Below are positions 4,759-34,363 of a DNA stretch of 64,000 bases, one piece after another. The stretch's first letter is position 1. Each line of letters opens with the position of its first letter. The notes under the pieces were generated by a model that worked only from the letters and a program-made list of their open reading frames with translations, made no database searches and was not told the DNA's origin. The translations under genes and the position numbers were made by a program. The stretch lies in contig CAWANO010000001.1 of assembly GCA_963783425.1 (NCBI GenBank), positions 3,375-67,374 of the forward strand, read 5' to 3'. Source of the stretch: an uncultured delta proteobacterium. GTDB taxonomy: Bacteria; Desulfobacterota; Desulfobacteria; Desulfobacterales; QNYZ01.

Positions 4759-4768
4759 GGCGTTTCCA

Positions 4769-5650: not shown

Positions 5651-5726
5651 ATTGTCCTGTTTTCGGTAGACGTCTGTTCGCGGGGCCACTTCGTACAACT
5701 GATTTGCATCCCTGCCAGGTGATCAA

Positions 5727-5786
5727 GTTATCCACATTATAACGATGAAGACCCTAATGGGCTCTTTATACCGTAAATATAACGGT
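5727..5786. promoter_or_regulatory. Two 5-N7-5 palindromes upstream of znuA (candidate Zur operators)
   Basis: GTTAT-CCACATT-ATAAC (5727-5743) and ACCGT-AAATATA-ACGGT (5770-5786). AT-rich palindromes in the znuA leader; no consensus scoring was possible. Confidence 0.35.
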
Positions 5787-5880
5787 TTGGCAGGTGGGGT
5801 CAAGTATAATGCAACTAAATTGCACAAAGCACTCTATTCTGAAGTGATCGGCGGATGACTCCCGACGGTTCGAGTGAGGG

Positions 5881-7362
5881 TCAGTGGAGCTCGATTATAC
5901 GCTTGGCGTCAACGCCGTAGCGTTTCATGCGGTTGTAGACGGTCACGCGGGAAACCCCCAGCATCTCGGCCGCCCGGGACTGATTGCCGCCGGTCTGCTG
6001 CAAGGCCTCGACCAGTTCCTGTTTTTCGACCTCCTTTAAATTGAAGGTGCGTCGTTTGGCCGGGGGCAGGGGGCGTTTGCCCTGGTAAATGGAGTGGGGC
6101 AGGTGGTGCACGCGGATGAGCGATTCGTGGCAGGCCACGAAAGCGTATTCGAAAGCGCTCCTTAGTTCGCGCGCGTTTCCGGGCCAGTCATACTCCGTGA
6201 GCAGCTCCATGGCGCGGTTGTCGATGCCCTCGATATCTTTGCCGCTCTTGAGGCGCACGATGCGAAAGAAGGCCTCGGCCAACAGGGGGATATCCTCGGT
6301 GCGTTGGCGAAGCGGGGGCAAGTGGATGGGGATGACGTTGATGCGGTAAAAAAAGTCCTTGCGGAAGCGGCCCTCGTGCATGAGGCGGGGCAGGTCGCGA
6401 TTGGTGGCCGAAATGATGCGCACCTCCACGGGCAGCGGTGTGCTGCTGCCGACCCGTTCGATCACCTTCTCTTCGAGCACCCGCAGCAGTTTGAGCTGGG
6501 TGGCCATGGGCATGTCGCCGATCTCATCGAGGAAGATGTCGCCGCCGGAGGCTTTTTGGAAGCGCCCGACACGATCGCGGACCGCGCCGGTGAAAGCGCC
6601 CTTTACGTGGCCGAACAGCTCCGATTCCAGCAGCGACTCGGTCAGGCTGGCGCAATTGACGCGCACAAAGGGGCCGTTGTTGCGATCGCCGATTTCGTGA
6701 ATCGCCCGGCTGACAAGCTCCTTGCCCGTGCCGCTTTCGCCGTAGATGATCACCGGAGCGTCCGAAGAGGCGGCATTTTCGATCAGTTCGAATACCTGGC
6801 GCATGGCAGCGCTGATGCCGATGATGCCGTGGAATCCGTCTTTGGCGCGCAGCTCGCGGCGAAAGGCTTCTAACTGAACCTCTTTTTCGGCCAGTTCGGT
6901 AATGTCGGTGACGGTGCCCACCGCGCCGATCACCTCGCCGGTAGTGTCGCGCAGTAGTGATCCGCTCTTGATAACGTGCACCGCCCTGCCGTCTTTGTGG
7001 CGAATGATGCACTTGCAGGTCTTCATCTGGCCGAAACGGAACAGGTCGCACCAGTAGCCGTCTTCGCGGTCCAGGGCCCGGGTGCAGGTATCGCATTCCA
7101 GCAGGTCACAGGCATGGCCGAGCATCTCCTCCAGGCTGTAACCGGTAATGTGCTCCATGGCTCGGTTGACCGAGACGATGGCGCCCTGGTTGTCGACAAT
7201 CATGATGCCGTCGTGGATGGTGTTGACCACCGTTTTCCAGTAGCGATCCAGTTCCTGGAGATGCATTTTCCTGTCCAGTGCGTGCGGGGCGGTAGGTTGC
7301 CACCCGTAGCGTTGAGTCCCATCGGTAATTATGTCCAAGGTGTCAACTGTAAAGGGGCCCAC
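5881..7362 (-). CDS. Sigma-54-dependent transcriptional activator (PAS sensor - AAA+ - Fis-type HTH)
   Basis: Walker A GESGTGKE, GAFTGA motif (HVKGAFTGAV), C-terminal HTH ...AAEMLGVSRVTVYNRMKR. The start codon may be an internal Met. Confidence 0.9.
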   Translation of the reverse strand: MGPFTVDTLDIITDGTQRYGWQPTAPHALDRKMHLQELDRYWKTVVNTIHDGIMIVDNQGAIVSVNRAMEHITGYSLEEMLGHACDLLECDTCTRALDREDGYWCDLFRFGQMKTCKCIIRHKDGRAVHVIKSGSLLRDTTGEVIGAVGTVTDITELAEKEVQLEAFRRELRAKDGFHGIIGISAAMRQVFELIENAASSDAPVIIYGESGTGKELVSRAIHEIGDRNNGPFVRVNCASLTESLLESELFGHVKGAFTGAVRDRVGRFQKASGGDIFLDEIGDMPMATQLKLLRVLEEKVIERVGSSTPLPVEVRIISATNRDLPRLMHEGRFRKDFFYRINVIPIHLPPLRQRTEDIPLLAEAFFRIVRLKSGKDIEGIDNRAMELLTEYDWPGNARELRSAFEYAFVACHESLIRVHHLPHSIYQGKRPLPPAKRRTFNLKEVEKQELVEALQQTGGNQSRAAEMLGVSRVTVYNRMKRYGVDAKRIIELH

Positions 7363-20076: not shown

Positions 20077-21216
20077 TCAAGCGCGTAGCTTTTTAACCGC
20101 CGCCACGATGACCGACAGAGCACGGTCAATCTCGGCCTCGCTGGTCATTTTGCCGGTGGTAAAGCGCACGGTGCCCTTGGCCCATGCTTCGGGAATCTGC
20201 ATGGCTTTTAACACGTGTGAAATCTCGACGGTGTCGGCGTGACAGGCCGCGCCGGCCGAGGCGGCCACTTCCAGGCCGATCTCTTCCAAAATGCGGTTGG
20301 CTTCCAGGTCGAGAAACGACACACTGCTGGTGTTGGGCAGGCGTTCGGCCCCTTGGCCGTTGATGCGGATATCATTCAGCTCGGCCAGTAGCCCGGATTC
20401 CAGTCGGTCGCGCATGGCGAGCATGTGGGTGGCGTTGGTCTCCAGGTCGCGCTGGGCGATTTCACACGCTTTTCCCAGGCCCACGATTTCCAGTACATTC
20501 TCCGTGCCGGCGCGACGGCCCGTCTCCTGCCCGGCACCGTGGCAAAATCGCTCGGCCTCAACATCTTTGCCGACGTACAAAGCGCCGACACCCTTGGGTG
20601 CGTAGATCTTGTGGCCGGCCAGCGAGAGCAGATTCACACCCAGCTCATCCAACCGTGTCGGGAGTTTTCCCACCGATTGGGCGGCGTCGGTATGCACCAG
20701 GATGCCCTTGCCCGCGGCCAGCCGGCTTATTTCGGCAATAGGCTGGACGGTGCCTACCTCGTTGTTGGCGTGCATGACCGATATCAAAATGGTTTGCGAA
20801 GTGATGGCGGCGGCCACATCGGCCGGGCTGACCCGTCCCTCGGCGTCGACCGGCAGGTAGGTTGCGGAGAAGCCGTGGCGTTCCATGAAACGGCACACCT
20901 CGAGAATGGCCGGGTGCTCGACGGTGCTGGTGATGATGTGGGTGCCTCGGGCGTAGCGGGAACCGGCAATGCTTTTAAGGGCCTGGTTGTTGGATTCGGT
21001 GCCGCCGCTGGTGAAGATCACTTCATCGGCCTCGCAAGCGAGAATAACGGCCACCTGCCGGCGCGCTTTCTCAACAGCTTTTTTGGGGGCTATGCCGTAC
21101 CAGTGGGCGCTGGAGGGGTTGCCGAATTCGGTCTCCAGAAAAGGCCGCATGGCCTCGATCACCTCGGGGGCATGGGGCGTGGTGCCGTTGTAGTCCAGGT
21201 AGATGGGTTTGATCAT
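20077..21216 (-). CDS. Cysteine desulfurase (NifS/IscS class)
   Basis: Start MIKPIYLDYNGTTP with RBS GGGAGAAG. PLP lysine in SLAGHKIYAPKG; active-site ASAGAACH. Confidence 0.9.
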   Translation of the reverse strand: MIKPIYLDYNGTTPHAPEVIEAMRPFLETEFGNPSSAHWYGIAPKKAVEKARRQVAVILACEADEVIFTSGGTESNNQALKSIAGSRYARGTHIITSTVEHPAILEVCRFMERHGFSATYLPVDAEGRVSPADVAAAITSQTILISVMHANNEVGTVQPIAEISRLAAGKGILVHTDAAQSVGKLPTRLDELGVNLLSLAGHKIYAPKGVGALYVGKDVEAERFCHGAGQETGRRAGTENVLEIVGLGKACEIAQRDLETNATHMLAMRDRLESGLLAELNDIRINGQGAERLPNTSSVSFLDLEANRILEEIGLEVAASAGAACHADTVEISHVLKAMQIPEAWAKGTVRFTTGKMTSEAEIDRALSVIVAAVKKLRA

Positions 21217-21455
21217 TGTCGCTTCTCCCTTGCTTTGTTTTCTTACCCTCATGGCCGACATCTTGGACTGCAAAAGGACGCCTTCGTAAGGATTGATGGG
21301 CGCAAACGACCGTGGACACAGTTGAAATCATAAAACCCGTAACTGATCATCACTAAAACCGGTCAACGGAGGTGGCGCCAATGTACGCCAAATTTGAGCG
21401 GACTATTTATATCTAATTTCATTAATAGATAAAATAGCCCTGCGGGGTTCGTCCT

Positions 21456-21821
21456 GTGGGCCGGTCTGAGCCGGTCAAGGCGGCAAATATGCACCACAGA
21501 CAAGCTGAAAATGGCCATATGGTGATTGAAATGAATCAACGCCGAGCCATCCATGAAAAATGTTTGAATTGTTGCGCTTGGTATTATTCAGGGGTCACAG
21601 ATTGCACATTTGAGGGTCAATGTCCATTATGGCCGTTCAGATCCGGTCAGGGCAATCAAAACCCTGCCAAACGATCGAGAGCAACCAGAGCCTATTGCCG
21701 CTGGTGCATGGCCGGTTCTGGGCGTCTGGTGGCGCAGTGTGACGATAAAGATTGCCCGCTGTTTCCGTTTCGGAAAACTAAGATAGATCATGCTGCAAAT
21801 GTTGCTTTAATGACCAATTAA
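21456..21821 (+). CDS. Small Cys-rich protein with tandem CxxC...C-x3-CPL(W/F)PFR modules (start may be the Met at 21531)
   Basis: CLNCC...CTFEGQCPLWPFRSG and CRWCM...CDDKDCPLFPFRK. This motif type recurs in phage and mobile-element small proteins (recollection). Confidence 0.5.
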   Translation: MGRSEPVKAANMHHRQAENGHMVIEMNQRRAIHEKCLNCCAWYYSGVTDCTFEGQCPLWPFRSGQGNQNPAKRSRATRAYCRWCMAGSGRLVAQCDDKDCPLFPFRKTKIDHAANVALMTN

Positions 21822-21965
21822 ACGCTGTATAGACAGCTTTAAACGAGCTTAAATCTTATATGGGTGTCTGTGTATTAGTTTGACATAAAAACACATATAT
21901 GAGATAGTTTTCTATAATCTATCCGCAACAAAGGATGGGTCAAATGCAAGCCATCTATAATCAGA

Positions 21966-22008
21966 GCCAAGTTGCCTCGTTGGAAGGGATGACTTGGCTT
22001 TTTTATTT
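21966..22008 (+). terminator. Hairpin plus T-run (rho-independent terminator-like)
   Basis: GCCAAGT...ACTTGGC followed by TTTTTTATTT. A perfect TATAAT lies at 21913-21918. Confidence 0.35.
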
Positions 22009-22045
22009 CACGCGATCTACCGGCAAAATCAAGGAGATTTAATCT

Positions 22046-22534
22046 GTGAAAAGACAAAGGAGGGCGGGTAAAGTCATAGCTGTTGTTTTGATAGTTGTTT
22101 TCTTGGCTGGATGTTCAACATCACCTAAAAAGATAAGCGCATCATACGTATCACCGACTGAGTATTCACATTTAGAATGCGATCAGATTCGTAGCGAATT
22201 ATCACAAGTCAAACGCGAACTGTCGCAAATAACTGGACAACAGGAAAGCGAAGCAACCAAAGATGCTGTGGCATTAAGTGTAGGTTTGGTTATCTTTTGG
22301 TCAGCTCTCTTTTTTATGATTGGTGACGACAAAAAGGAAGAAATCTCTTTGCTTAAAGGTAAATATGAGGCTTTAGAGACAAGCGCAATAGAGAAGAAAT
22401 GTAGCTATGCCCCTGAAATAGTGGAGGGTAGAGAAGAACGGAAAAAACTTGAGGCTGAGCTCAAGAAGAAAGAAGAAGAGGCAGCTCAGAAGATACATGG
22501 CGGAACCGATCAATACGGCAATCCATGGGATTGA
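22046..22534 (+). CDS. Lipoprotein with coiled-coil C-terminus (GTG start)
   Basis: Lipobox VFLAGC after a basic N-terminus; one internal hydrophobic segment; K/E-rich tail. Confidence 0.6.
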   Translation: MKRQRRAGKVIAVVLIVVFLAGCSTSPKKISASYVSPTEYSHLECDQIRSELSQVKRELSQITGQQESEATKDAVALSVGLVIFWSALFFMIGDDKKEEISLLKGKYEALETSAIEKKCSYAPEIVEGREERKKLEAELKKKEEEAAQKIHGGTDQYGNPWD

Positions 22535-24034
22535 GATCGAATTTACACGGGCACCGGCCAACGGTCCGAAAGATCTATGAATGTCCTCGGAGAAGACACC
22601 CCACACCATAATCCAGTAACATAGTTGGACAGCAAAAAAGGAGATACTATGAAAAAGCCCCCAATTGTCAGTTGACAGTTGAACGTCGCTGGACGTAACC
22701 GTTAGTTGGAGTACGAAAAACAACTAACCAAAGGGGGCAAGAATGATTTACGTCGGAATGGACATCAGTAGCAAGAGTTTTATGGTACACGCGATCAATT
22801 CCAAAAAGAAAGTGGTTTTTAACAGTGAAATCAAACCGACCCTCGGTGGCCTGCGACAAATGATCAAGGACCTGGGCCGACAAACCAAACTGGTGGTGTT
22901 TGAAGCTGGCAATCAGCTCAAGTGGGTGGCGTTGGAATTGAAGCGAATCAAGGGTGTACACCTTCATGTGGTCCATCCTAATGAGATCAAATGGATCAGT
23001 CAAAGCAGCGCCAAAACAGACAAGATCGATGCCCGCAAACTGGCCCAGCTGGCCAGGGGTGACATGCTGCCGCGCAAGGTGCACATCGTCGAGGGGCAGG
23101 TGCGTCAATTACGCGAATTGATCAGCGCACGGCATACGCTTCAAAGCAAGCGGGTGGCATTGATCAACAGCATCCGAGGTTGTTTAAAACAGGAAGGTTA
23201 TCGGTTGCCGGAAAAGTTTTTTAATCACGTCAATTGGCGGGTGCATCTTGAGCGCATGCGCTTGGCCGACACCCAGAAGATTATCTTGAGCAGTTACATG
23301 ACCAGCATCGAAAGCCTGCACAAAGCCGAGTCAGAGTTGACCAGCCAAATATTGGCAATTGAAAATGAGGATATCCAGCGGTTGCAGAGTATTCCCGGGA
23401 TCGGGGAGCTTTCATCCCGGGTGATCATAAGCGCCGTTGATAAGGTAGATCGTTTTGACAGTAAAAAGGCTATCGCCAAGTACGGTGCATTAACGCCACG
23501 GATTTATCAAAGCGGTGGGGTGACCCATTTAGGACGAATCAGTCGCGACGGCCGGCACGAGATCAGACGGGTGCTACTGCAATGCGCCCACACGGTGGCG
23601 CGCATGAAAAGTTATGAGGCCAGGCCGTTGAGGCTGTTTTACGAGCGAATAAAGCAGCGGCGTGGCAAGAAGATTGCAGTCGTAGCCTTAGCGCGTAAGT
23701 TGCTGACAATTGCTTATGGGGTTCTCAAAAGTAGTACTACATATGATCCGAAAGTACTAAATCCCAAAGCCGCTTAATTGGTATCTATAAGGTGAAGTTC
23801 AATAGCATTAATGGTCCACGCAATAAGGTAAGCCCGCATAGGCCTTGACCCGGCCAAGTCGCTCTGGAGATTGGGACGCCTTATTTGAACGAGAATGTTG
23901 AGCATAAAGCTCGAATGGGAGGTTAACGTGACCATTAACTGGGGATAGCTATGAGTTGAGTACGTGCAGCTCAAGAGGCGTTGTCCTTAAAAAAACCCTA
24001 ACAAGCGAAGTTAACTGTTGACTTTCGCTTTTTC
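22535..24034 (+). mobile_element. IS110-family element (maximal extent; exact ends not determined)
   Basis: Transposase gene flanked by ~207 nt and ~257 nt of structured non-coding DNA. Imperfect inverted match AGTTGACAGTTGAAC (22670-22684) / GTTAACTGTTGACT (24010-24023). Confidence 0.55.
22743..23777 (+). CDS. IS110-family (DEDD) transposase/recombinase
   Basis: MIYVGMDISSKSF N-terminus (RuvC-like DEDD). C-terminal ...LQSIPGIGELSS... helix-hairpin-helix region typical of the family. Confidence 0.9.
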   Translation: MIYVGMDISSKSFMVHAINSKKKVVFNSEIKPTLGGLRQMIKDLGRQTKLVVFEAGNQLKWVALELKRIKGVHLHVVHPNEIKWISQSSAKTDKIDARKLAQLARGDMLPRKVHIVEGQVRQLRELISARHTLQSKRVALINSIRGCLKQEGYRLPEKFFNHVNWRVHLERMRLADTQKIILSSYMTSIESLHKAESELTSQILAIENEDIQRLQSIPGIGELSSRVIISAVDKVDRFDSKKAIAKYGALTPRIYQSGGVTHLGRISRDGRHEIRRVLLQCAHTVARMKSYEARPLRLFYERIKQRRGKKIAVVALARKLLTIAYGVLKSSTTYDPKVLNPKAA

Positions 24035-24046
24035 ATGGGAGGAACT

Positions 24047-24553
24047 ATGAACAATGTCAGGGGGATTAAATCAATTGTAGCCGGTCTTTTTGTTACCTTG
24101 CTGGCAACAGTAGGTATTATTGCGATTATTGGTTCTGGCGGCGGTGGTGGCGGCGATTCCAACCCTCAAGGGGGGATAAGGTTTAAAAACGCGCTAAGAT
24201 GCGCTAATGGGGCGAGTTTTAGCGCAAGTATGACCATTCAGGGTACAACGCTCGGTTCACAGTCTGGAGTATGGAGCAGGTGCATAATTCGTGCACCAGG
24301 AACATATCAGGCTAGGATTCAATTTACAGCTTGTGGCGTTAATGCGGCGGGAACTATTCCCGTTGACGTGACCGAAGGGTGTACCTCAAGCGGCGTTCTA
24401 ACCTATCGAAATAACGTGCTTGTAATAGTCCCGCAATTAAATTGCCCGGGGGTTTGTTTGCAATCAAACACGTCAGCGATGAGCGCCGATGAAGTTCCAC
24501 TTGAAACATTACCTTACGGAATAGACAATAACACCATTATGAATGTTGAATAA
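24047..24553 (+). CDS. Secreted or membrane-anchored Cys-rich hypothetical protein
   Basis: RBS GGGAGG, start MNNVRG. N-terminal TM/signal segment, Gly6 run, multiple Cys residues; no family recognised. Confidence 0.5.
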   Translation: MNNVRGIKSIVAGLFVTLLATVGIIAIIGSGGGGGGDSNPQGGIRFKNALRCANGASFSASMTIQGTTLGSQSGVWSRCIIRAPGTYQARIQFTACGVNAAGTIPVDVTEGCTSSGVLTYRNNVLVIVPQLNCPGVCLQSNTSAMSADEVPLETLPYGIDNNTIMNVE

Positions 24554-24703
24554 AAGAAACTGTTCGTAATCAACTCAAACAATACTCCAACCTTTGTGTG
24601 CTTGAGATTGGCCGTATTTTAGGGGTGTTGTGGAAACGCGGTTGTATGAACTTAAACGAGATCGCCCGATATGCGCGAGATTAGAGCGTTGGGGAGAAGA
24701 GAG

Positions 24704-25096
24704 ATGAAAATCATCAAATCTCTAACACTATCATTATCGTTCTTGCTGATAGTTGGATGCGCTGGCCACCGTCCCATCGTTGACTTTAAAAGCAGTCAAT
24801 CTGGTAAAAATGCCGAAACTTATGAGGTGGATTTAAAGGAATGTCAAGAGTTTGCGAAGAATGTGAATGTCGGTGGAACAACAGCTGCAGGAGCCGCAAT
24901 CGGCGCAGGAGTTGGCGCTGCATTCGGAGCTGCTGTTTACGCCATATTCGGGCTTGATGCCACAGATGGCGCTGCTTTTGGTGCTGCAATGGGAGGCCTT
25001 CAAGGAGCTGGGACTGGTGGAGCAAGTGCTGCCAATAGCCAAATTACAATCATTAATAACTGTATGAAAGGGCGTGGATATAATGTTTTGAATTAG
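24704..25096 (+). CDS. Glycine-zipper lipoprotein
   Basis: Lipobox LIVGC. GxxxG/AxxxG-rich segment AAGAAIGAGVGAAFGAAVYAIFG. Confidence 0.65.
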   Translation: MKIIKSLTLSLSFLLIVGCAGHRPIVDFKSSQSGKNAETYEVDLKECQEFAKNVNVGGTTAAGAAIGAGVGAAFGAAVYAIFGLDATDGAAFGAAMGGLQGAGTGGASAANSQITIINNCMKGRGYNVLN

Positions 25097-25337
25097 CAAT
25101 TTAACTAATGTATTCATCTGAAAAACAACAACATTGTTTCTTTAAATAGGTAAAAAAGGACTTTACTTTTATATAAATATTATTTATAGTACTTTGTAGA
25201 AATAAGTATTTAAAAATTTAATCAAGTCGGTTAACCAAGCCGCATTCAAAGTCACCACGGAGGCAGGATGATTACACCAATGGCCCGTGGTGGGCATTTG
25301 AGGCGGCTTTTTTTATTTGGAGAACAAGGAGTTGAAA

Positions 25338-25709
25338 ATGGCAGTAGATTTAAGAACAGCTCGATTCCTTAACAACATCACTCAGGCCAGGCTTGGCCAC
25401 ATGACAGGCATACCGCAGAGCAGGCTAAGTCTGGCCGAAAACGGCCTCACCGCACTCAAATCGGAGGAAAAAATGAAAATTGCCACAGCACTTGGCGGCA
25501 GAATTGACTGGGCAGCCACGGAAAACTCGAAGTGCGACTTCGCCATGCCGCAAGAGGATTACACCTCGCCAAAAGTGGGCATCAAGGTGCGCATTTCCAA
25601 AGACCCGCACAACCTCCCCAACCCGCAACCAGTTCACATCGGCGCACCAGAGAACTCGAACAAATACCGCTATCTGACATGGGACGAGTTTATCAAAGGA
25701 GATTACTAA
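25338..25709 (+). CDS. XRE-family helix-turn-helix regulator
   Basis: RBS AAGGAG. ...ITQARLGHMTGIPQSRLSLAENG... HTH. Preceded by about 200 nt of very AT-rich DNA. Confidence 0.75.
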   Translation: MAVDLRTARFLNNITQARLGHMTGIPQSRLSLAENGLTALKSEEKMKIATALGGRIDWAATENSKCDFAMPQEDYTSPKVGIKVRISKDPHNLPNPQPVHIGAPENSNKYRYLTWDEFIKGDY

Positions 25710-25710
25710 A

Positions 25711-26427
25711 ATGAAGCCGCTACCAAAGGAACACTTTGTAAGGCAATTTCGTGAACGTTCCCCCTTTCTGAACCCTAAAGGCATGTTCACATCAGCTGGA
25801 GCGCCTACCTCAAGCCGATCCTTCGATTTCATGACCGCCCGGGAGCGACTGGAGGAGATCCTCGACAAGCGCAAAGACTGGCAGGGCGACCCGCTGGGCT
25901 TGCTCGAAAATGCCAAAGAGCGGTTCAGTGAAGCGAAGGCCGAGTGGAAAGGTCATGTCAAGGACCAACCGCACCTTAACGATAAAGCGAAGCCGACCGG
26001 CCATTTTGCCGAGCGCATCAACCGCTGGGCCGCCAGAAAGCAGGTGCTCGAAGAGGAGTCGCGAGCGCTGAACAAGCTGCTCAATCAGGAAGAGAAGGTC
26101 GTAGACCAAGACTTCGCCAAGCGACAGAAAAAGACCCGATGGCTGGGGGTGTGCAAATTGAATGACAACCTGATCGCCGCCTGTGATCTGCGGCCTGTTG
26201 AATACAAAGACGGCAAGCCGGTCTTTGTCGATGATGGCGGCAGCGTGGACGAGTACTTGGCCGAATGCAAGCTGCAGGGGCGAGCCAAAGCGGCTACGCA
26301 CCGTGAGCTGGAAAAGAAAAAGGCCGCAGAGCTTGAAACTCAGCAGCTTGCTACCAAGAAGGCTGAAAAAGACATCTATGACAAGCATCTCAAGAAATTA
26401 CAGCGGCGCAAGACCGACGCCGCTTAA
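25711..26427 (+). CDS. Hypothetical protein (238 aa, charged/coiled-coil)
   Basis: The ATG lies 1 nt after the XRE stop; no recognisable domain. Confidence 0.5.
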   Translation: MKPLPKEHFVRQFRERSPFLNPKGMFTSAGAPTSSRSFDFMTARERLEEILDKRKDWQGDPLGLLENAKERFSEAKAEWKGHVKDQPHLNDKAKPTGHFAERINRWAARKQVLEEESRALNKLLNQEEKVVDQDFAKRQKKTRWLGVCKLNDNLIAACDLRPVEYKDGKPVFVDDGGSVDEYLAECKLQGRAKAATHRELEKKKAAELETQQLATKKAEKDIYDKHLKKLQRRKTDAA

Positions 26428-26720
26428 TCAGTCAATTTCGTGGGCAGGGCAACACCGGCCTTCCGGGGTCGTTAGAGCGCGGCTGGCGCCCACAAACCAA
26501 TTCACCGGCCGCGCTCATCCGGTTGGGGGGGTAGCATTACGTTGATCGCAATGCGGGGCATGTGGTTGTCCCCCGTAATCTACTTTTTGACCACATGCAT
26601 ATTCTCAAAGCTGGCCAGCCGGTCCAGTTCAATTGCGATAACCGGCCAGGAGTTAGTCCATTTTCATCTCCTGTTACAGAGGGGGGTCGTGAAAAGCCCC
26701 CCTCAAACCCTAAACCAGCG

Positions 26721-26972
26721 ATGATGCGTAATATGAAGGTCATTGAGTTTCCACTGGAACGACAAAATACAAATCAACACCGCTTGGTCAACCTCAATAA
26801 AATCACCCAAATGTATGTAGGCAACGGTGTAGATGAGGCGGAGGGGTGGGTCCGGTGGCACAGAAATATTCTCGGCGAGTTCCCCGACCTTGCCCCACAT
26901 GATGCGGTGATATTGAAGCGACTGGAGAATATGTATAAGCGAACCCAGGAGATTTTGAGCCATGACGATTAA
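26721..26972 (+). CDS. Hypothetical small protein (83 aa)
   Basis: ORF with start MMRNMKV; no recognisable domain. Confidence 0.35.
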   Translation: MMRNMKVIEFPLERQNTNQHRLVNLNKITQMYVGNGVDEAEGWVRWHRNILGEFPDLAPHDAVILKRLENMYKRTQEILSHDD

Positions 26973-27221
26973 TCCGGCCCCAGAGGACACGCATACGGCA
27001 AGCCGTGGTGTCAATTTGAGGTCATGGGTGCTCCTTGCACAGGAGATTTCAGCCAGCACACATGACTGTCCACGGTAATTTTTTACATGCCTCAACTATT
27101 TGATTTATTATGAGATATAGACGAGGTGAAAAACTCCATGAAAAAAATGTTAATAACTTTAGGCCTCTTTTCTTATAATAGATATAGCAGACGACAATTT
27201 TTGGACAAAATAAATCACCTT

Positions 27222-27293
27222 AGGGGAGGGGCAACCGTTGCGCACGGTGCGGCAAACCTGCTTCTATCCCAGCCGAGCCGCTGCCCCTCCCCT
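27222..27293 (+). promoter_or_regulatory. 12-bp perfect inverted repeat (long hairpin) in the leader of the Rep-like gene
   Basis: AGGGGAGGGGCA (27222-27233) and TGCCCCTCCCCT (27282-27293) enclose 48 nt that contain a nested ACCGT-tgcgc-ACGGT hairpin. The repeat ends 34 nt before the ATG at 27328. Confidence 0.5.
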
Positions 27294-27327
27294 TTTCTAC
27301 TTTTAATGGCTGGAAGAAGGATAGAAA

Positions 27328-28602
27328 ATGTCACTCCAAGACGAAACCTCGCCTGGTATTCACGATCAGAGCTTTGATCTTACAGCACCACCTAAAATTG
27401 ATCCCGACAAACCTAAACGTAGAAAACGAAGACGCCTAAGTGTTGGGGCGGAAAAAGCCAGAGCACAGGAAAGGGCCGAGCAGAAACACGAAATGCAGCA
27501 GAAGAAAAGGCGAGAGATCACATCAAAAAGCATCACAAAAAATTGGAGTGAGATCGAACAAATCAAAGAGGATTTCCTTTTAGATGACCACGATCACCCA
27601 ATGGAAGATTTTTTAGCAAACGAAATCGTTAATTTACGAAGTTCCGTAAAAAAGGCTGCGACCAAATCCCGCAAGCAATCCCTCAAAGACCGTGACGCCA
27701 TTCATCCGACATTTTATGACGGCCATAATAGGATCATCACTGATGTGAACAGTGTGGAAAATCAAGTTTACAGCGCAACCCTACAGGTCTGTGTCTACAA
27801 CGCTATAAAAAATAGAAATAATTTTCATCGGAAATATGATTACCTCTGGGACACTAATGGGCCGATGCTGGCAGAGTTCATGGGCTGGACACGCATACAC
27901 AAGGCCAGACGAGCTATCAACTTCTTAGTCAACATCGGGGCGTGGGTAGATACAGGAAAACGCAAGGGGGAGACGGGTGAAACTATCACTTATAGAATTG
28001 GTGAACGTAAGAAGTTCGGCTTTACTACTGAAACCGGCCCAATGCATCGATGGGCAGATTACTTCTATTATCGAATCAGAAATTATGGACCGATATTTGA
28101 ATACTATCGAAGGATAGTCGGAACCGCAAAGCTGATCTATGAATATCTGTACAAGACCGACCCTGACAGAGATTATCATCATTGGGTGGAGGAATGCGCA
28201 AATATTTTTTATAGAAAATTTGACTTTGATGACAGGTTACTTGATCGAGACAGAAATTATGTAACACGGCTGATTCTTAGGTTTCTCGCAGAGCTATGCC
28301 AAGACAACTATCGCAAGAAAAACCCTGACCAGATTTTTATACTGGAACGACCTGAAGTTACTTTGGCAGATATGGAAGATATCGCTTTCACTTTAAACCG
28401 GAACTACTCGACAAATTTAAAAGTCGGCTGGGACGGCAACAGCTACAGCTCCAGAGGTTTCAAAAAGGCTGATTATCGGCGGGACTTAATTGGTGCTATT
28501 GCAGACTTAAATGAACCAATTGATAAAACACTTTTTACAAGTGGGCAGTTGTGGTGCCTGTATATGCTTGAATTTATATGTGGAAAGCGTCTACTTTCAT
28601 GA
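27328..28602 (+). CDS. Putative replication initiator (Rep-like, 424 aa)
   Basis: Basic N-terminus and a winged-helix-like segment LAEFMGWTRIHKARRAINFLV. Iterons start 38 nt after the stop. Function is inferred from context, not from a recognised motif. Confidence 0.45.
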   Translation: MSLQDETSPGIHDQSFDLTAPPKIDPDKPKRRKRRRLSVGAEKARAQERAEQKHEMQQKKRREITSKSITKNWSEIEQIKEDFLLDDHDHPMEDFLANEIVNLRSSVKKAATKSRKQSLKDRDAIHPTFYDGHNRIITDVNSVENQVYSATLQVCVYNAIKNRNNFHRKYDYLWDTNGPMLAEFMGWTRIHKARRAINFLVNIGAWVDTGKRKGETGETITYRIGERKKFGFTTETGPMHRWADYFYYRIRNYGPIFEYYRRIVGTAKLIYEYLYKTDPDRDYHHWVEECANIFYRKFDFDDRLLDRDRNYVTRLILRFLAELCQDNYRKKNPDQIFILERPEVTLADMEDIAFTLNRNYSTNLKVGWDGNSYSSRGFKKADYRRDLIGAIADLNEPIDKTLFTSGQLWCLYMLEFICGKRLLS

Positions 28603-28639
28603 AAAATAGTGCTTGGAGGATATGTGATATTTTGCCGTA

Positions 28640-28728
28640 GAAAAGTTACGTTTTTCGTAAGTCTTTAATTTTGAAAAGTTACGTTTTTCGTAAGTCTTCT
28701 CGGAAAAGTTACGTTTTTCGTAAGTCTT
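28640..28728 (+). repeat. Three 26-bp direct repeats (iterons) GAAAAGTTACGTTTTTCGTAAGTCTT
   Basis: Exact copies at 28640-28665, 28673-28698 and 28703-28728 (33- and 30-bp spacing). Each contains TTACG-N5-CGTAA. AT-rich DNA follows. Confidence 0.85.
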
Positions 28729-28989
28729 TAATTTGTCCAAAAAGGCAGTTATCTAATATTATAACAATATTTTAGCTAATTTGGATAATGTTTATGCGAC
28801 CAAAACATGTATGTAACTGCTTAATAAATAGTACCCTATACAGCGGGTACTGCGCCCTCTGGGCTCGTGAGCAGGCATGGTCCAAGTATGCTTACGCATC
28901 CTTTCCACAAGATGCCTTGCTACACTACGCCCATGGAGCGTTATGAAAAAATGGATATAGTTGTCTACCAAAAACTGGAGAAGAAGATA

Positions 28990-29058
28990 AACATGCTTCC
29001 AGATAAAAAAGTAGAACATCTTCCACTTAAAAAGGATAGAACATGCTTCCAGATAAAA
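28990..29058 (+). repeat. Second set of direct repeats AACATGCTTCCAGATAAAA (two exact copies plus a degenerate middle copy)
   Basis: Exact copies at 28990-29008 and 29040-29058. GAACATCTTCCAC at 29014-29026 gives a period of about 25 bp, upstream of the 29161 gene. Confidence 0.7.
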
Positions 29059-29160
29059 TCAGGTATCCGTCCAGTTATAGATTTAATGCATACTAAATAA
29101 GTATAGATAAAATGCATAGAGAAGATAGAAATTATCAATGCCATAAAAGAGAGGTGAACC

Positions 29161-29892
29161 ATGACAATGGTATGTAAGGTCTGCAGTCATCCAGAAAGGC
29201 TGCTTATTGACAGGGCTTTAGCGGGTGGAGGCAATGTTTCAAAGATAGCTAAGAAGTACAGCGTATCTCACGGCAGCCTTTACCATCACCGCAAAAATCA
29301 ACTGACCCGACAGATGATTAAGCATACTGAACTGCGCGAGATTGTAAGTGGAGAACACCTGATAGGAGTGGTGACAGATCTGCTTTCGGCCAGTCAGGAT
29401 ATCCTCAACAAAACGAAAGATAATCCCAAAAAATATGGTGTTGCGTTAAAGGCGATTGCCGAGTCCAGACAAACTGTTTCTCTTTTATGGGAAACGGCAT
29501 TTAGGTTGCAGGAATATCGTGCCGAAGATCACATCGAGGGCGAATATGAGAAGCAGTGGAAAAAGTTTTTGGACGATGTGGCACAACTGCCGGTCGAAGA
29601 TATCGAGACGATACGATCGCTTCATGAGAAGGCTATAATGTTGCGGAGGCAGAAATCGGATCAAGGCAGGCGCACAGATCTTGAGCGTAAAAAGTCTGGC
29701 CCCAAAAAGGGTTGGAATCATCCACAGTCGTATAGAACCACGATTGAATTGAAGCAGCGAAAGCGCCGCAGACGAAAGCCCGCCCCTGTTAAAGTCAATG
29801 AATTTGATGAAATGCGTGATCATTTAGGCATGGATAACAATCCAAAGCCAAAGCGCAAGCGGACAGGCTGGGCAGGGGCAACGCTGTTTTAA
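29161..29892 (+). CDS. Zn-ribbon/HTH DNA-binding protein with a highly basic C-terminus
   Basis: CKVCSHPER...IDRAL..GGNVSKIAKKYSVSHGSLYHH pattern (CxxC + HTH). KR-rich tail. Resembles phage/plasmid small DNA-binding proteins. Confidence 0.5.
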   Translation: MTMVCKVCSHPERLLIDRALAGGGNVSKIAKKYSVSHGSLYHHRKNQLTRQMIKHTELREIVSGEHLIGVVTDLLSASQDILNKTKDNPKKYGVALKAIAESRQTVSLLWETAFRLQEYRAEDHIEGEYEKQWKKFLDDVAQLPVEDIETIRSLHEKAIMLRRQKSDQGRRTDLERKKSGPKKGWNHPQSYRTTIELKQRKRRRRKPAPVKVNEFDEMRDHLGMDNNPKPKRKRTGWAGATLF

Positions 29893-29960
29893 AGCTTGAC
29901 ATATTATGCAAATGTTCGTAAAAATATAATAAATATTAAGCTTTATTTATAGGATCAATA

Positions 29961-30644
29961 ATGAAAACAATTGCTTATCTTAGGGTCAGCACAGACAAAC
30001 AGGATCTGGACAACCAGAAGCTTGAAATTGAAAAATATGCACGGTCCAGAAATCTTGTCATTGATCAATGGATTCAGGTCACAATATCCAGCCGCAAAAA
30101 TGGTCAAGATCGTCGCATTGATGAACTATTATCAAAGCTGAAGCGTGGTGACTGTTTGATTGTCAGCGAGATCAGCCGTCTTGCACGTTCTATCAGAGAA
30201 ATTCATCAGATCATGCACCGGCTTTCCAAGAAAAAGATTGAATGCCACTTTATCAAACAAAACCTCATCACCCATGGCGATAACGATATGGCGACCAAGA
30301 TTTATTTAAACGCCTTTGCGCTTGCCAGTGAGATCGAACGTGACCTTATCAGTCAACGTACTAAGAACGGTTTAGCGCTTGCTAAGAAGCGTGGAAAGAA
30401 GCTTGGCAACCCCAACCTGCCAAAGATCAATAAACGCACTAAAGAAGCCGCTGACAAGTATGCTGACACACTGCGAGCGATACTGACCGGCTTTGTCGAC
30501 CAGGGTCTGACCTATCAGCAGATGGCCGATGCCCTTAGAGATGCAGGCGTTAAGACGCGCAGGGGCAGTACCCAATGGTCCACGGGCAGTGTGCAGGGAT
30601 TGTTGAAGCGGCTGGACCTTAGAACCAAAAGGGCGAGGAGATAA
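29961..30644 (+). CDS. Serine recombinase (resolvase/invertase catalytic domain + C-terminal DNA-binding region)
   Basis: AYLRVSTDKQ catalytic-serine motif, SEISRLARS, ERDLISQRTK. C-terminal ...LTYQQMADALRDAGVKTRRGSTQWSTGSVQGLL. Confidence 0.9.
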   Translation: MKTIAYLRVSTDKQDLDNQKLEIEKYARSRNLVIDQWIQVTISSRKNGQDRRIDELLSKLKRGDCLIVSEISRLARSIREIHQIMHRLSKKKIECHFIKQNLITHGDNDMATKIYLNAFALASEIERDLISQRTKNGLALAKKRGKKLGNPNLPKINKRTKEAADKYADTLRAILTGFVDQGLTYQQMADALRDAGVKTRRGSTQWSTGSVQGLLKRLDLRTKRARR

Positions 30645-30662
30645 GAATTGAGGAGACGGTAA

Positions 30663-32045
30663 ATGAGAGGGTTCTTCTCCGATTTAGTTGGAGAAGAACC
30701 AAACGAAGATAAGAAGTCAGGTCGGTTTGTCCGCACAAAGAAGAAGAAACCTATCAATGAACACATCATTTTTAAGGCCCCTGCCCTGATTACAAAGACC
30801 ACTTGGGATCAAATTCAGGCTCAGACTGAGGCCAACAAGGTCAAGGGCACGCATACGACGAAGGAGACGGAGACGTTATGGCTCAGGGACATGCTGACTT
30901 GTGGTGAATGTGGCGGAAAGCTTGTGCCTAAATATGGTGCTTATCGCAAGGATGGCACACGCCCAAAGTATTATTGTTGTCATTGGCGGGGGGCATCGCA
31001 AAAGGTTTTAAGAAGTGTTGGCCGGTTAGAAAGATGCGCCCTGCCATTGATCAGGGCAAACGAGATTGAGACGCGTGTTTGGCAAGCTTTGCTTGATCCA
31101 ATTCGTCTCCTGATGAACCCTGAAAGGGTCAAGCCATTGATTGACAAAAAAGACGTCACAACAAAGCTGGCCCAATATGATGATAGCATAAAGTCGTTTC
31201 AGGCCGATTTGAGGGGCGTCAAATTGGGCGTCAAGCGGATTATGGCAATGTTGCAGAAACCAGATGCGCCTGAGCTGGCCGCTGACCTATTGCTAAAGCA
31301 GCTAAACGATCTGGAAACCAAAAGGGTCACAATTGAGGCGCGGATTGATGATGTGAAACAGCAAAAAGCTGATTTATATGATGCTGTTGAAAACAACAAG
31401 GCCTACCAACAATTTATTCAAGGCCACAAAAAACAGTTGAAGAGCTTAATCCATGAAATAATCAGACTGAAACCTGAGCATAAAAAGCGTCTAGTCGAGG
31501 GATCGTTTAACGACAAAATCAAGGTGGTGATCAATCAGGATTATATGAGGGTTGCTGATCCAAAGAACCCGAAGAGCTTTGCTGAATATGAAACGGTTGC
31601 AGAGGGCAAGTGGCTTTTAGAGTGGCCCGAAGCATCGTTTAGCGGCCATCTTAATATTGCCGTTTTAAAGCGGTTTTTGGACGAGGGCGTGATAGGTAAA
31701 CCAATGAAAATAAAGGGCGGATCAGCTATTAAATCAGATCAAAACACTACGCTCTTACAAGTCTCACATGGCCATCTTCTGGTCCAATCTCTCCAGACTC
31801 AACGGTCCGCTTATCATCTTGTATATTTCGATGTTCTTCCTGTCGGGACCCGTGTCGAGAGGCACCTATTTCACCTTTTACTCGAGCGGCTGTTTTTTCG
31901 TTGTGGCGATCTTGTCCATCGTTCCCATTCCATTCATGGGAAAGTTCTGGTTTTATTTCTTCAACCTGCTGTTCAATTGACCGTGATCTATTTTTTCGTT
32001 GCCAGCGTGGTTTACTGGATTCGCGCCGGGGCGCAATTGGGTTAA
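30663..32045 (+). pseudogene. C-terminal portion of a large serine recombinase (end of recombinase domain, zinc ribbon, coiled coil), no catalytic domain
   Basis: ...HIIFKAPALITKTTWDQIQ..., LTCGECGGKL...YYCC zinc ribbon, long coiled coil. Same reading frame as 29961..30644, separated by two TAA codons. The tail after about 31770 looks non-proteinaceous. Confidence 0.6.
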
Positions 32046-32135
32046 CCCTTGAAGATTCCGCTTTTACGATTACAATAGGGATCGATTGTTTCGTTTCTTT
32101 AAATCCCGCAACGATATTGCCAATAAAGAGTTCAC

Positions 32136-32771
32136 ATGCAAACTGAACCGAATCTGCTGGAAATTTTCTCCGACTACATCTGACCCTGGTGCTACTTCAT
32201 TGCCGGGCGCATTGACAAGATTGAAGCGAGATTTGAGAATTTGACGATCCAGTGGGTGGCGTTTCCCCTGCACCCGGAAACGCCCCGAGCGGGCCGTTCC
32301 CTGGCGGACCTTTTCGCCGGCCAGCCCGTCAATATCGACGATATGCTGGCGCAATTACGGGGTGTGGCTCTGGCCGAAGGGTTGCCCTTTGGTGACCGGA
32401 CCATGACCTACAACAGCCGTTTGGCCCAGGAGTTGGGGAAATGGGCCGAAACCCTGGGGCGGGGCCATGCCTACCACTGGGCGGCCTTTAAAGCCTATTT
32501 TGCCGACGGTAAAAATATCGCCCGAAACGACGTGCTGCTGGAGATCGCCGAAACCGTTGGGTTGGACCCTCGACAGGCCCAATCGGTCATCGAAGCGAGA
32601 ACCCAGCGCGAGGCCGTGGACCGAGATTGGCAACGCTCCATGGAGCTGGGTGTTCGCGCTGTACCCACGTTACGAATGGGGGGTGAGATGCTGGTAGGTG
32701 CGCAGCCCTATGCGGCCATCGAGCAGTTGGTTGAAAGACATCTCAAGGGTGGCTACGACGCTGCCTTTTAA
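32136..32771 (+). CDS. DsbA/FrnE-like thiol-disulfide oxidoreductase, selenoprotein (UPWC redox motif; UGA at 32181-32183)
   Basis: ATG at 32136 gives MQTEPNLLEIFSDYI-U-PWCYFIAGRI..., in frame with ORF 32241..32771. The UGA sits where the first Cys of the family's SDxxCPWC motif would be. Confidence 0.75.
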
Positions 32772-33667: not shown

Positions 33668-34363
33668 TTGCCTCCCAGCTGGATTCTCAAGGTGCAGATC
33701 ATGCGATTTAAAGAGGCTGAAACCTACCGCTTCAACCCCTTTGACCTCACCAAGGTGTGGCCCCACGGCGACTACCCGCTGCAGGAAGTGGGCCGCTTGA
33801 CCCTGGATCGCAACCCCACCGATTTCCACACCGAGATCGAGCAGGCGGCCTTCGAGCCCAAAAATCTCGTCCCCGGAATCGGCCCCAGCCCGGACAATAT
33901 GCTGCTGGCCCGCCTGGTTTCCTACGCCGACGCCCACCGTGCCCGTCTGGGGGTCAACTACAAGCAGATCCCCGTCAATCGACCGAAATGCCCCGTCCAC
34001 AGCTACAGCAAGGGCGGTGCCATGCGGATTGAAAATGTGCGCGATCCGGTTTACGCCCCCAATTTAAAAGGCGGCCCACGGGCTGATGCCGAACGCTACC
34101 CCGAAGTGGCGGTCTGGGGCGCCAGCGGTGAATTTATTCGCGCCGCCTACACCCTGAGCGAAAATGACGATGACCGGGGCCAACCCGGCACCCTGGTGCG
34201 CAAGGTGATGGACGATGCCCAGCGCGATCGGCTAGTCTCAAACGTGGTGGGGCATCTTAAAAAAGGCGTATCCGATCCGGTACTGGAACGCGCGTTCGAG
34301 TACTGGCGCAATATCGACGAACAGATCGGAGATCGTATCGGCAAGGGCGTCAAAGGAAAGTAA
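33668..34363 (+). pseudogene. Monofunctional catalase, C-terminal ~225 aa only
   Basis: ...SWILKVQIM...FNPFDLTKVWPHGDYPL...RNP..F..EIEQAAF.P...VPGI..SPD. The haem-binding N-terminal half is absent. Confidence 0.8.

Follow-up and report, generated by a model that had tools for sequence, protein, structure and literature searches.

A foreign island in a Desulfobacterales-like genome with a serine recombinase, origin-like repeats and a TerS-like gene: a possible phage satellite

Introduction

The window analysed here, i.e., the whole stretch of 64,000 nucleotides from contig CAWANO010000001.1 of an uncultured bacterium, contains between a cysteine desulfurase gene (20077-21216, minus strand) and a DsbA-like gene (32136-32771, plus strand) a region with a content of guanine plus cytosine (GC) of 39-54%. 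This raises the question of what kind of element the region, in the following termed the island, represents, how it entered the chromosome and whether it is still able to leave it. A preliminary description of the same DNA had regarded it as an integrated, plasmid-derived and possibly mobilisable element that may still excise and replicate. The analysis summarised here leads to a different view. With an about even chance of being right, the island can be read as a phage satellite resembling the phage-inducible chromosomal islands (PICIs) and belonging to a new, very rare and undescribed family.

Origin and borders of the island

The host baseline, taken from 47 one-kb windows outside the island, has a GC content of 58.5% (sd 2.2%, minimum 53.8%), compared with 45.8% for the island (21396-31756), and nine of the ten one-kb windows of the island lie under the host minimum. 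The GC content at third codon positions (GC3) amounts to 0.35-0.67 in island genes vs 0.69-0.76 in host genes, and the island sequence lies at a tetranucleotide distance of 0.33-0.49 from the host compared with 0.10-0.17 elsewhere, i.e., three to four times the background. These contrasts in GC, GC3 and tetranucleotide composition support a foreign origin of the island, and the abrupt drop in base composition that had been noticed by eye turns out to be real and far beyond chance. Every open reading frame (ORF) of the island is encoded on the plus strand. Neither tRNA genes nor Rfam matches were found in the window.

The ends of the island can be placed at two putative attachment (att) sites:

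21394-21423, no strand: attL, core TT (21394-21395) followed by arm P' (21396-21423), GAGCGGACTATTTATATCTAATTTCATT
31727-31756, no strand: attR, arm P (31727-31754) followed by core TT (31755-31756)

The left arm matches the reverse complement of the right arm at 20 of 28 positions with a perfect inner GAGCG, and both arms are bordered on their outer side by the identical TT. In a comparison of the edge regions this pair ranks top among approximately 134,000 position pairs, and its segment score is attained by 5 of 200 shuffles. Moreover, the right arm coincides with the position at which homology to the large serine recombinase (LSR) of a related element ends (approximately 31749) and with a flip in AT skew and strand composition. 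With these sites the element likely comprises 21396-31754 plus the TT core, i.e., 10,361 bp or 8,960 bp after subtraction of an IS110 element. The span of 21400-32135 given in the preliminary description was near exact at its start and reached approximately 380 nt too far at its end, the element stopping at 31754. The predicted attP reads …ACACTACGCTC-TT-GAGCGGACTATT… (longer form TATTAAATCAGATCAAAACACTACGCTC-TT-GAGCGGACTATTTATATCTAATTTCATT) and the predicted attB …ACGCCAAAT-TT-ACAAGTCTCAC… (longer form ACGGAGGTGGCGCCAATGTACGCCAAAT-TT-ACAAGTCTCACATGGCCATCTTCTGGTC). The element would have entered by serine-integrase recombination, using an attP in which imperfect inverted arms of 28 nt enclose a TT core and an attB whose TT would have been situated in a spacer of approximately 560 nt between the divergently oriented cysteine desulfurase and DsbA-like genes. 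The region upstream of the DsbA-like gene stays with that gene and contains a promoter-like site at 32049-32076.

The flanking cysteine desulfurase was furthermore compared with 185,579 species genomes. Its closest relatives, with up to 78% identity, are encoded in metagenome-assembled genomes (MAGs) of Desulfosarcinaceae and Desulfobacterales, suggesting a Desulfobacterales-like host. Among the 80 loci with cysteine desulfurase relatives that were inspected none contains island genes, and no empty site was found; the nearest genome, 78% identical in the cysteine desulfurase, is non-syntenic with the DsbA-like gene and hence uninformative. Exact-protein look-ups of the flanking genes, aimed at Logan contigs adjoining the island, returned no record.

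A related element within comM

Besides the window, four metagenomic contigs, L083, L084, L088 and L089, were included in the comparison. Contig L084 carries an element of 8,116 bp that interrupts comM (Mg-chelatase) and recurs in four contigs. Its gene order is as in the window, with genes for an XRE regulator, a Cys-rich protein, small ORFs, the putative initiator, repeats and recombinase genes. The junctions with comM read …AAACGTTTG-CC-AACTATTCTTAT… and …ATAAGAATAGTT-CC-AACCATACTCC…, from which an attP of ATAAGAATAGTT-CC-AACTATTCTTAT follows, i.e., a perfect 12-nt inverted repeat around CC, and in silico excision of the element restores an uninterrupted ComM ORF of 511 amino acids (aa). The LSR of this element is intact (565 aa, 571 aa in the circle) and encoded at its right edge, its ORF crossing attR into comM. 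Both elements display inverted arms around an identical central dinucleotide, as expected of LSR attachment sites, the arms matching at 20 of 28 positions around TT in the window and at 12 of 12 inner positions around CC in comM. As judged from these sequences, the comM element is decisive for integration by an LSR at the level of the family.

Taken together, the island is very probably foreign DNA integrated by an LSR. The earlier proposal of a horizontally acquired element with a serine recombinase at one edge is thus borne out by the terminal inverted arms, the identical TT and the relative splitting comM.

Positions 1-3446 of L084, beside comM, encode a P4-like primase of 946 aa (Zn_ribbon_DnaG, DNAG_N, Toprim_3, DUF3631) and an HTH_17/AlpA-like protein and look like another mobile element residing nearby.

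The putative replication module

The central part of the island contains a gene followed by two repeat arrays and AT-rich DNA:

27328-28602, plus strand: gene for an orphan protein of 424 aa, a putative replication initiator by its context
28640-28735, no strand: iteron array A, three direct repeats of approximately 32 nt with inverted sub-repeats TTACG-TTTTT-CGTAA
28736-28983, no strand: AT-rich spacer, candidate DNA-unwinding region; lowest GC over 100 nt 0.26, in the interval starting at 28713
28984-29058, no strand: repeat array B, three repeats of approximately 25 nt with the core (A)ACAT(G)CTTCCA

The spacer includes a DnaA-box-like site at 28780 on the minus strand matching at eight of nine positions (TTATCCAAA), and no perfect box. 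Array B might form the other half of the origin or else be a packaging or regulatory site upstream of the TerS-like gene described below.

The 424-aa protein has no match in Pfam (even at E ≤ 5), PHROG, NCBIfam, PADLOC and the PDB sequences, none among 72,556 plasmids (tblastn) and none among 50,697 phage genomes, and a profile search of the PDB yielded noise only. Its relatives were searched for in a collection of 5.8 billion proteins, in which it stands as an orphan, by an exhaustive HMMER search over 1.84 billion cluster representatives and by a profile search, leaving about five true ones, four of 260-359 aa from the HMMER search and one more from the profile search. They have in common a core of approximately 130 residues (…TN..L…G…A..I.FL…GAW…G..Y..GE.KK…), which AlphaFold predicts with low confidence to adopt a helix-helix-helix-β-hairpin arrangement. 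Cadherin-repeat proteins, which also appeared in the search of the representatives, were discarded as compositional artefacts. The 424-aa family, a putative initiator family with about half a dozen members in the billions of proteins searched, is a new component. The 19-mer of the iterons was found in metagenomes as seven single, chance-like matches on unrelated high-GC contigs without island proteins, and in viral sequences there were no matches.

In all five loci encoding the protein or a relative, two to three tandem repeats of 24-33 nt are located at or just after the stop codon of the gene:

Window: 28640-28735
L083: 2792-2885
L084: 9000-9080
L088: 2932-3001
L089: 804-851

In these loci the repeats are followed by 250-350 nt of AT-rich DNA with minima of 14-26% GC and then by a second repeat or box, boxes of the type CTTCCA(A)AAA being similarly spaced in the four loci other than the window. 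Most repeat units consist of inverted half-sites converging on an A/T run. The repeat sequences vary between the loci and their position is constant, which is the pattern expected of co-evolving pairs of an initiator and its iterons. A similar arrangement is known from the origins of the Staphylococcus aureus pathogenicity islands (SaPIs), which are found directly downstream of rep and have an AT-rich centre with iterons on both sides (PMC9371898), and the iterons of the RepA_N initiator of the PICI-like element (PLE) satellite contain inverted sub-repeats converging on an A-tract (PMC7145576). Gene, iterons and AT-rich DNA therefore likely form a replication module, a conclusion drawn from anatomy and not from homology. 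The preliminary description of a Rep-like gene with iterons and AT-rich DNA thus holds for the iterons and the AT-rich DNA; the tandem repeats stand beside a gene and an AT-rich region as in iteron replicons, and the gene product matches no Rep family, no plasmid and no phage. The self-replication that had been considered possible is plausible, the layout being conserved in five loci.

Alternatively, the 424-aa protein might be a regulator, a partition or centromere-binding protein or a packaging-site protein, with the repeats serving as operator, centromere or pac site and without any autonomous replication. The lack of Rep family homology, of a helicase or primase motif and of a usable fold would be in agreement with this, as would the single weak DnaA-box-like site, and repeats bound by regulators or by ParB/ParR can look alike. 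However, the repeats 3' of the gene, the 250-350 nt of 14-26% GC and the second box are kept in five divergent loci, this layout matches the origins of satellites and plasmids (PMC9371898, PMC7145576), a ParA-type ATPase partner is missing and, the integrase aside, no conserved protein of the family exceeds the 424-aa protein in size. A role other than that of an initiator is for these reasons rather improbable, an estimate that is not exclusive of the other readings of the island.

Upstream of the putative initiator gene an RNA structure is predicted:

27222-27293, plus strand: GC-rich branched hairpin with U-run, -40.8 kcal/mol, z = -3.3, attained in 0 of 200 shuffles

The hairpin precedes the start of the 424-aa gene and is itself preceded by sigma-70-like promoter matches at 27082-27111 and 27150-27179. 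It could act as a leader or attenuator or as a small RNA controlling the initiator. A 17-nt inverted repeat with a match of 94% (27198-27214 and 28727-28743, TTTTTGGACAAAATAAA and TTTAATTTGTCCAAAAA) brackets the 424-aa gene, one copy being located in the promoter region and the other just past the third iteron; it may represent an operator or looping site.

The TerS-like protein and the regulator

Between the repeats and the recombinase genes a DNA-binding protein is encoded, which had been described as a Zn-ribbon/helix-turn-helix (HTH) protein, and a regulator gene is found further upstream:

29161-29892, plus strand: p243, a DNA-binding protein of 243 aa resembling the small terminase subunit (TerS)
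25317-25709, plus strand: XRE-family HTH regulator, Pfam HTH_3 with E 2.8e-6, PHROG transcriptional repressor families

p243 is composed of an N-terminal CxxC…HTH…HH domain of approximately 120 aa and a basic C-terminal tail. Its first approximately 45 residues match a single phage genome, that of Thermus phage Riverbug, in which the corresponding gene is located directly upstream of, and overlaps, the gene of the large terminase subunit (TerL). An alignment-based scan of IMG/VR resulted in eight viral contigs with relatives of p243, and in all seven contigs tested the next gene encodes a large terminase (Terminase_6N/6C). A hidden Markov model (HMM) built from the TerL-upstream phage proteins alone recognises p243 with 69 bits (E 2e-17 at Z = 1e6) and selects among 530 ORFs only p243 and its homologues in L088 and L089, and the reverse HMM recovers nine of nine phage proteins. 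The phage relatives have weak matches to TerS PHROGs, and a confident assignment to a TerS family was reached neither for them nor for p243. By sequence, p243 is homologous to phage proteins that occupy the small-terminase position and hence TerS-like; the gene had thus been seen correctly and its identity is revised.

The XRE regulator, a homologue of which is encoded in L084, is a candidate for the master repressor of the element. The preliminary description had seen it together with two further ORFs; the HTH_3 domain could be confirmed and the two ORFs, encoding proteins of 238 and 136 aa, are without family match.

The recombinase in two open reading frames

The right end of the island is formed by a recombinase that is divided over two ORFs:

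29961-30644, plus strand: serine recombinase N-part, 227 aa, Resolvase domain (Ser10) and first half of the Recombinase domain
30645-30662, plus strand: junction of 18 nt with a GAGGAG Shine-Dalgarno sequence (30650-30655) and a second in-frame TAA (30660-30662)
30663-31756, plus strand: LSR C-part, rest of the Recombinase domain, zinc ribbon and coiled coil; its ORF extends to 32045 across attR

The N-part matches PF00239 (E 1.8e-32, residues 4-147, motif YLRVSTDKQ) and positions 3-50 of the 102 positions of the Recombinase domain, and the C-part matches Pfam Zn_ribbon_recom and the integrase family PHROG 95 (E 9e-22). Both ORFs are in the same frame, the first TAA occupying 30642-30644 and the ATG of the C-part starting at 30663, and the junction falls within an insertion of approximately 17 codons relative to intact LSRs. 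The C-part shares 32.5% identity with residues 243-548 of the comM element's intact LSR and is much closer to this LSR than the N-part is, whose identity to it amounts to 25%. The last approximately 98 codons of the C-part, up to 32045, are a read-through past the element end, and its length amounts to 460 aa in the integrated and 376 aa in the circular form. The recombinase had been described as ending about 90 nt from the ATG of the DsbA-like gene; this is true for the stop codon, which lies 90 nt before 32136, and not for the element, whose end is approximately 380 nt away.

In contig L088, a serine recombinase of 228 aa, a secreted SNase-like protein with signal peptide and a full-length LSR are encoded in a row (4605-6959), the 228-aa recombinase directly following the TerS-like gene, i.e., there are two serine recombinases in one small element. 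This stand-alone enzyme and the N-part are reciprocal best hits and end at the same domain position. Two readings of the arrangement in the window can be considered. The N-part pairs with the short enzyme of L088 while the C-part sides with the LSR of L084, as would fit a short recombinase next to an LSR that lost its catalytic half by deletion. Alternatively, a single gene may have been split, the C-part starting exactly at the end of the N-part and in frame.

In characterised LSRs the domains work in cis within a single polypeptide. In the island two TAA codons interrupt the coding sequence, no polypeptide unites the catalytic domain with the zinc ribbon and coiled coil, and the IS110 element is inserted; for these reasons the present copy, as far as its sequence tells, is presumably unable to excise and probably immobilised, a judgement held with somewhat less assurance than that on the replication module. 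The earlier statement that the element may still excise has accordingly become doubtful. It might be objected that the recombinase is functional in two pieces, the translationally coupled parts assembling into an active integrase of a still mobile element: the C-part begins where the N-part ends, in the same frame and with a strong GAGGAG and ATG, the break is found in an insertion and is not a point mutation, L088 encodes a stand-alone 228-aa recombinase with the same domain boundary and an island copy free of the insertion sequence exists in an independent read set. However, no other split case was found, a search with the C-part having returned only itself, the grouping of the N-part with the short recombinase of L088 and of the C-part with true LSRs suits a deletion, and the cis action of characterised LSR domains and the lack of any observed excision product argue in the same direction. 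An active two-piece integrase is thus quite unlikely.

Since the integrase gene reaches with its 3' end into attP, integration and excision would rewrite its C-terminal tail (376 and 460 aa in the window, 571 and 565 aa in the comM element), and the rewritten tail would signal the integration state to the integrase as a built-in switch. That a two-piece integrase, such a state switch and a new class of iteron-binding initiators all apply jointly is even more doubtful than the two-piece integrase by itself.

What kind of element is the island

PICIs are defined by a Ser/Tyr integrase, a regulator (alpA, merR, stl), a primase-replicase and terS at a median size of 9.5 kb (PMC10085698). In the island the Resolvase, Recombinase and Zn_ribbon_recom domains abut attR, though split in two ORFs, and the element of 8,960 bp (IS110 subtracted) encodes neither structural nor lysis domains. 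Searches of all island ORFs against Pfam, PHROG and NCBIfam did not reveal any relaxase, coupling, conjugation, mobilisation, virion structural or lysis domain, in line with the absence of conjugation, relaxase and phage structural genes reported earlier. A helicase or primase motif or domain is present neither in the 424-aa protein nor in the other island ORFs, i.e., a counterpart of the primase-replicase of PICIs was not found, the 424-aa protein with its iterons being a putative functional analogue by its context. Starting from the integrase, the circular order is integrase, envelope proteins, XRE regulator, other genes, putative initiator with origin and TerS-like gene. Judged by analogy, gene order and size of the element match the PICI/SaPI type. 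A satellite fits better than a plasmid because the approximately 9 kb combine an integrase and an XRE regulator with a replication module and a TerS-like gene and lack structural genes.

For a satellite we infer a life cycle of five steps. The XRE repressor would keep the element silent until a helper phage lifts the repression. The integrase would then excise the circle, and the 424-aa initiator would bind the three iterons 3' of its own gene, open the AT-rich DNA and recruit the host replisome. Finally, the TerS-like protein would recognise a site of the element and pass its DNA to the TerL and the capsids of the helper phage, i.e., hijack the phage terminase.

Several observations weigh against the satellite reading. 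Regarding integration, the statistics of the att sites in the window are modest when taken alone (p ≈ 0.025), the att assignment leans on coincidences and on the analogy with the comM element, and neither a circular junction nor an excision product was found in public contigs. Regarding replication, the initiator role is putative and assigned from context only: no similarity to any initiator could be detected for the 424-aa protein, which also lacks a RepA_N signal, both AlphaFold models are poor (predicted local distance difference test 43 and 51), and a Foldseek search resulted in no match at E ≤ 0.001, which is meaningless with a model too poor for fold comparison. Profile scans of JGI metagenomes and IMG/VR gave no further copies of the family. 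Regarding packaging, p243 has no Pfam or PHROG match, its similarity to phage proteins is confined to the N-terminal approximately 120 aa, the TerS role of the phage relatives is itself deduced from position and weak PHROG matches, and the comM element is devoid of the TerS-like gene, a Xer-like tyrosine recombinase being encoded in that place beside the origin. Moreover, no homologues of AlpA, MerR or Stl were matched in the island, its genes form a single-strand array unlike in canonical PICIs, it lacks a gene for capsid morphogenesis or redirection and no helper phage was observed.

One alternative is an integrated plasmid or an integrative and mobilisable element (IME), i.e., a small theta replicon with a serine integrase that hijacks a conjugative element in the manner of SGI1 or of streptococcal IMEs. 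A module of iterons and initiator together with an edge-located integrase would be expected for it, IMEs with iteron replicons exist, e.g., SGI1 (PMC7433901), the Xer-like tyrosine recombinase beside the origin in L084 recalls plasmid multimer resolution, and origins of transfer (oriT) as well as novel relaxases easily escape recognition by sequence. Against this, none of the ORFs encodes a relaxase, a coupling protein or a known mobilisation domain, no island protein has a match among the 72,556 plasmids, the gene between origin and integrase encodes a relative of the phage proteins found at the small-terminase position, which has no role in conjugation, and the family matches of a lipoprotein of the island are phage families only. 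An integrated plasmid or IME is unlikely on this evidence. The view of a plasmid-derived, mobilisable element is thus not supported, and p243 points to transfer mediated by phages, as in a satellite.

A decayed prophage that kept integrase, repressor, replication genes and terS after deletion of its structural genes is very unlikely, because, in spite of the XRE repressor, the LSR, the TerS-like gene, the phage-family lipoprotein, the decay of this copy (recombinase stops, IS insertion) and a truncated catalase gene in the neighbourhood, the equally small comM element (8.1 kb) with its clean att sites and restored comM indicates that the small size is native to the family, no fragments of TerL, portal, capsid or tail genes are present and a dedicated initiator with iterons is conserved family-wide.

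Accessory genes and IS110

The PICI-like satellite would carry, next to the genes treated so far, several small genes and one insertion sequence (IS):

21456-21821, plus strand: small Cys-rich protein, 121 aa from GTG or 110 aa from the ATG at 21489
22046-22534, plus strand: lipoprotein of 162 aa, lipobox FLAGC, recognised from the translation
22643-24043, plus strand: IS110-family insertion sequence, 1401 bp, transposase at 22743-23777
24047-24553, plus strand: small membrane or secreted protein, 168 aa in the IS-free form (called so in L001)
24671-25096, plus strand: glycine-zipper lipoprotein, 141 aa, lipobox LIVGC, faint Gly-zipper matches only
25711-26427, plus strand: protein of 238 aa
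26562-26972, plus strand: ORF of 136 aa, no match in any library

The Cys-rich protein contains two CxxC…CPL(W/F)PFR repeats and has a homologue of 28% identity that adjoins the XRE gene in L084; no family match was found in Pfam, PHROG and NCBIfam. The lipoprotein of 162 aa matches PHROG 13472 (E 5.5e-9) and PHROG 902, both comprising phage proteins of unknown function. The 168-aa protein has an N-terminal hydrophobic anchor and a Gly run and is without family match. Three small envelope proteins, as they had been described, are thus recognised from the translations, two by their lipobox and one by its N-terminal transmembrane segment, with faint support by Pfam. The 238-aa protein is conserved in the family (36% identity over 211 aa to the product of 48-704 in L088) and has no match in Pfam, also under relaxed conditions, PHROG and NCBIfam. 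PADLOC defence-system models gave nothing meaningful, and comparisons of the Cys-rich protein, the 238-aa protein and the LSR C-part with phage genomes resulted in no useful matches.

The IS110 element that had been proposed was verified by two Pfam domains of its transposase, DEDD_Tnp_IS110 (PF01548) and Transposase_20 (PF02371), both with E of approximately 1e-21, and it is, as typical of this family, a discrete insertion without long terminal inverted repeats. The Logan contig L001 of 5.9 kb from run ERR11523668 is 100% identical to 21371-22642 plus 24044-28669 and lacks the 1401 bp, and a second contig spans 28705-30193 with one substitution. Since the 1401 bp are missing from the otherwise identical contig, IS110 is a recent secondary insertion foreign to the original element. 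The IS-free junction consists of AAAAAAGGA followed directly by ACTATGAAC. IS110 is present as a single copy in the window and is inserted 3 nt before the ATG of the gene for the 168-aa protein. Its right end provides a Shine-Dalgarno-like GGGAGGA, and it has sub-terminal inverted repeats (CATGAAAAAGC) and non-coding ends of approximately 100 nt on the left and 266 nt on the right. The ends of the two Logan contigs at 21371 and 30193 were also considered as branch points of excision or of a variant and rejected, as these positions misfit the k-mer expectation for branching at attL/attB or attP.

Flanking genes

The DsbA-like gene to the right of the island starts with the ATG at 32136 and contains an in-frame TGA (32181-32183) at the first Cys of its CxxC motif (U-P-W-C). 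Upon replacement of U by C the Pfam DSBA match widens to positions 2-189 of 191 and rises from 81 to 120.7 bits. By sequence, the gene is a candidate for a selenoprotein gene or, alternatively, a pseudogene with a TGC→TGA change. A search for a selenocysteine insertion sequence (SECIS) by simple folding past the TGA resulted in a weak hairpin only (z = +1.7), in addition to the lack of Rfam matches mentioned above. As the first approximately 100 nt of the gene are GC-poor, it was considered whether the island supplied its 5' end including the selenocysteine codon; this was rejected, since GC3 is noisy (0.5/0.83/0.5) and attR lies 380 nt upstream.

The 379 nt from attR to the ATG of the DsbA-like gene (31757-32135) have 45% GC, are strongly T-rich on the plus strand and are stop-free in one frame per strand, the frame on the minus strand comprising 129 or more codons without a start codon. 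That this segment is part of the element or a disrupted target gene was considered and found no support, as it has no start codon, no Pfam match and no similarity to the fetched loci. It may be left over from a gene or element that occupied this site earlier.

Further to the right a YbaK-like gene ends at 33306 and is followed by a truncated catalase gene (33668-34363, plus strand), which encodes only the C-terminal third (Pfam Catalase 248-383 and Catalase-rel) and lacks approximately 250 N-terminal residues. Near the low-GC start of the window an IS66-family transposase gene is located (864-2405, plus strand; DDE_Tnp_IS66, E 1e-38), a second, unrelated mobile element.

Significance

As a kind, integrative elements carrying modules for replication and for packaging are already known; the new variants are the initiator family, the long semi-palindromic iterons, the integrase ORF crossing attR and the recombinase in two ORFs. 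To our knowledge no phage satellites have been described in sulfate-reducer-type Desulfobacterota, to which satellites would be extended if the present reading is true. It would furthermore imply a minimal satellite design in which a serine integrase, an XRE regulator and a TerS-like protein are joined by an initiator without known relatives. The 424-aa protein with its 3' iterons would be a compact candidate replicon for bacteria poor in genetic tools, and the att sites with the TT core found here and the CC core in comM would be new landing pads for serine integrases. Moreover, the read-through of attR by the integrase across the family suggests that the enzyme differs between the integrated and the excised state, which bears on the control of directionality. 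If the satellite reading is false, the locus is a well-delimited ordinary genomic island that decays in place beside a candidate selenoprotein gene, which it leaves uninterrupted.

Comparison with known systems

The island resembles PICIs and SaPIs in its size of approximately 9 kb, in having an integrase and an HTH regulator, in lacking capsid, tail and lysis genes and in a colinear gene order counted from the integrase; their initiator with the origin of iterons and AT-rich DNA directly downstream and their gene of the small-terminase type would have counterparts in the putative initiator and the TerS-like gene (PMC10085698, PMC9371898). Unlike in these, an LSR is located at the far end of a single-strand array, the regulator is of the XRE type without AlpA or Stl homologue, the putative initiator is no primase-helicase and has no known domain, a gene for capsid-size redirection is missing and the iterons are semi-palindromes of 24-33 nt instead of hexamers. 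The Desulfobacterales-like host and the lack of a known helper phage are further differences.

Like the island with its putative initiator, the PLE of Vibrio cholerae combines an LSR with a non-helicase initiator, which in the PLE binds semi-palindromic direct repeats in a non-coding region (PMC7145576). However, it has a size of approximately 18 kb, another gene set and a recognisable RepA_N initiator, and no sequence similarity to the island was detected. The PICMIs of Vibrionaceae resemble the island as very small integrated satellites with a small core of genes serving excision and replication and without capsid-remodelling genes (PMC10803314). They differ in their integration next to fis and in the need for AlpA and three core proteins; no homology to the island was detected, a detailed comparison not having been made.

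[quoted passage not shown] In contrast to the island, they have relaxases, oriT or Tra and conjugation functions, use tyrosine integrases at tRNA or trmE sites and carry no terS-like gene.

Finally, the recombinase corresponds to LSRs of the A118, phiC31, Bxb1 and TnpX type in its Resolvase, Recombinase, zinc ribbon and coiled coil segments, in a gene abutting attP and in att sites with inverted arms around a 2-nt core and without long direct repeats. Unlike in these enzymes, the domains are distributed over two ORFs in the island, and in its family the integrase ORF crosses attR, giving the protein a tail that depends on the state of integration.

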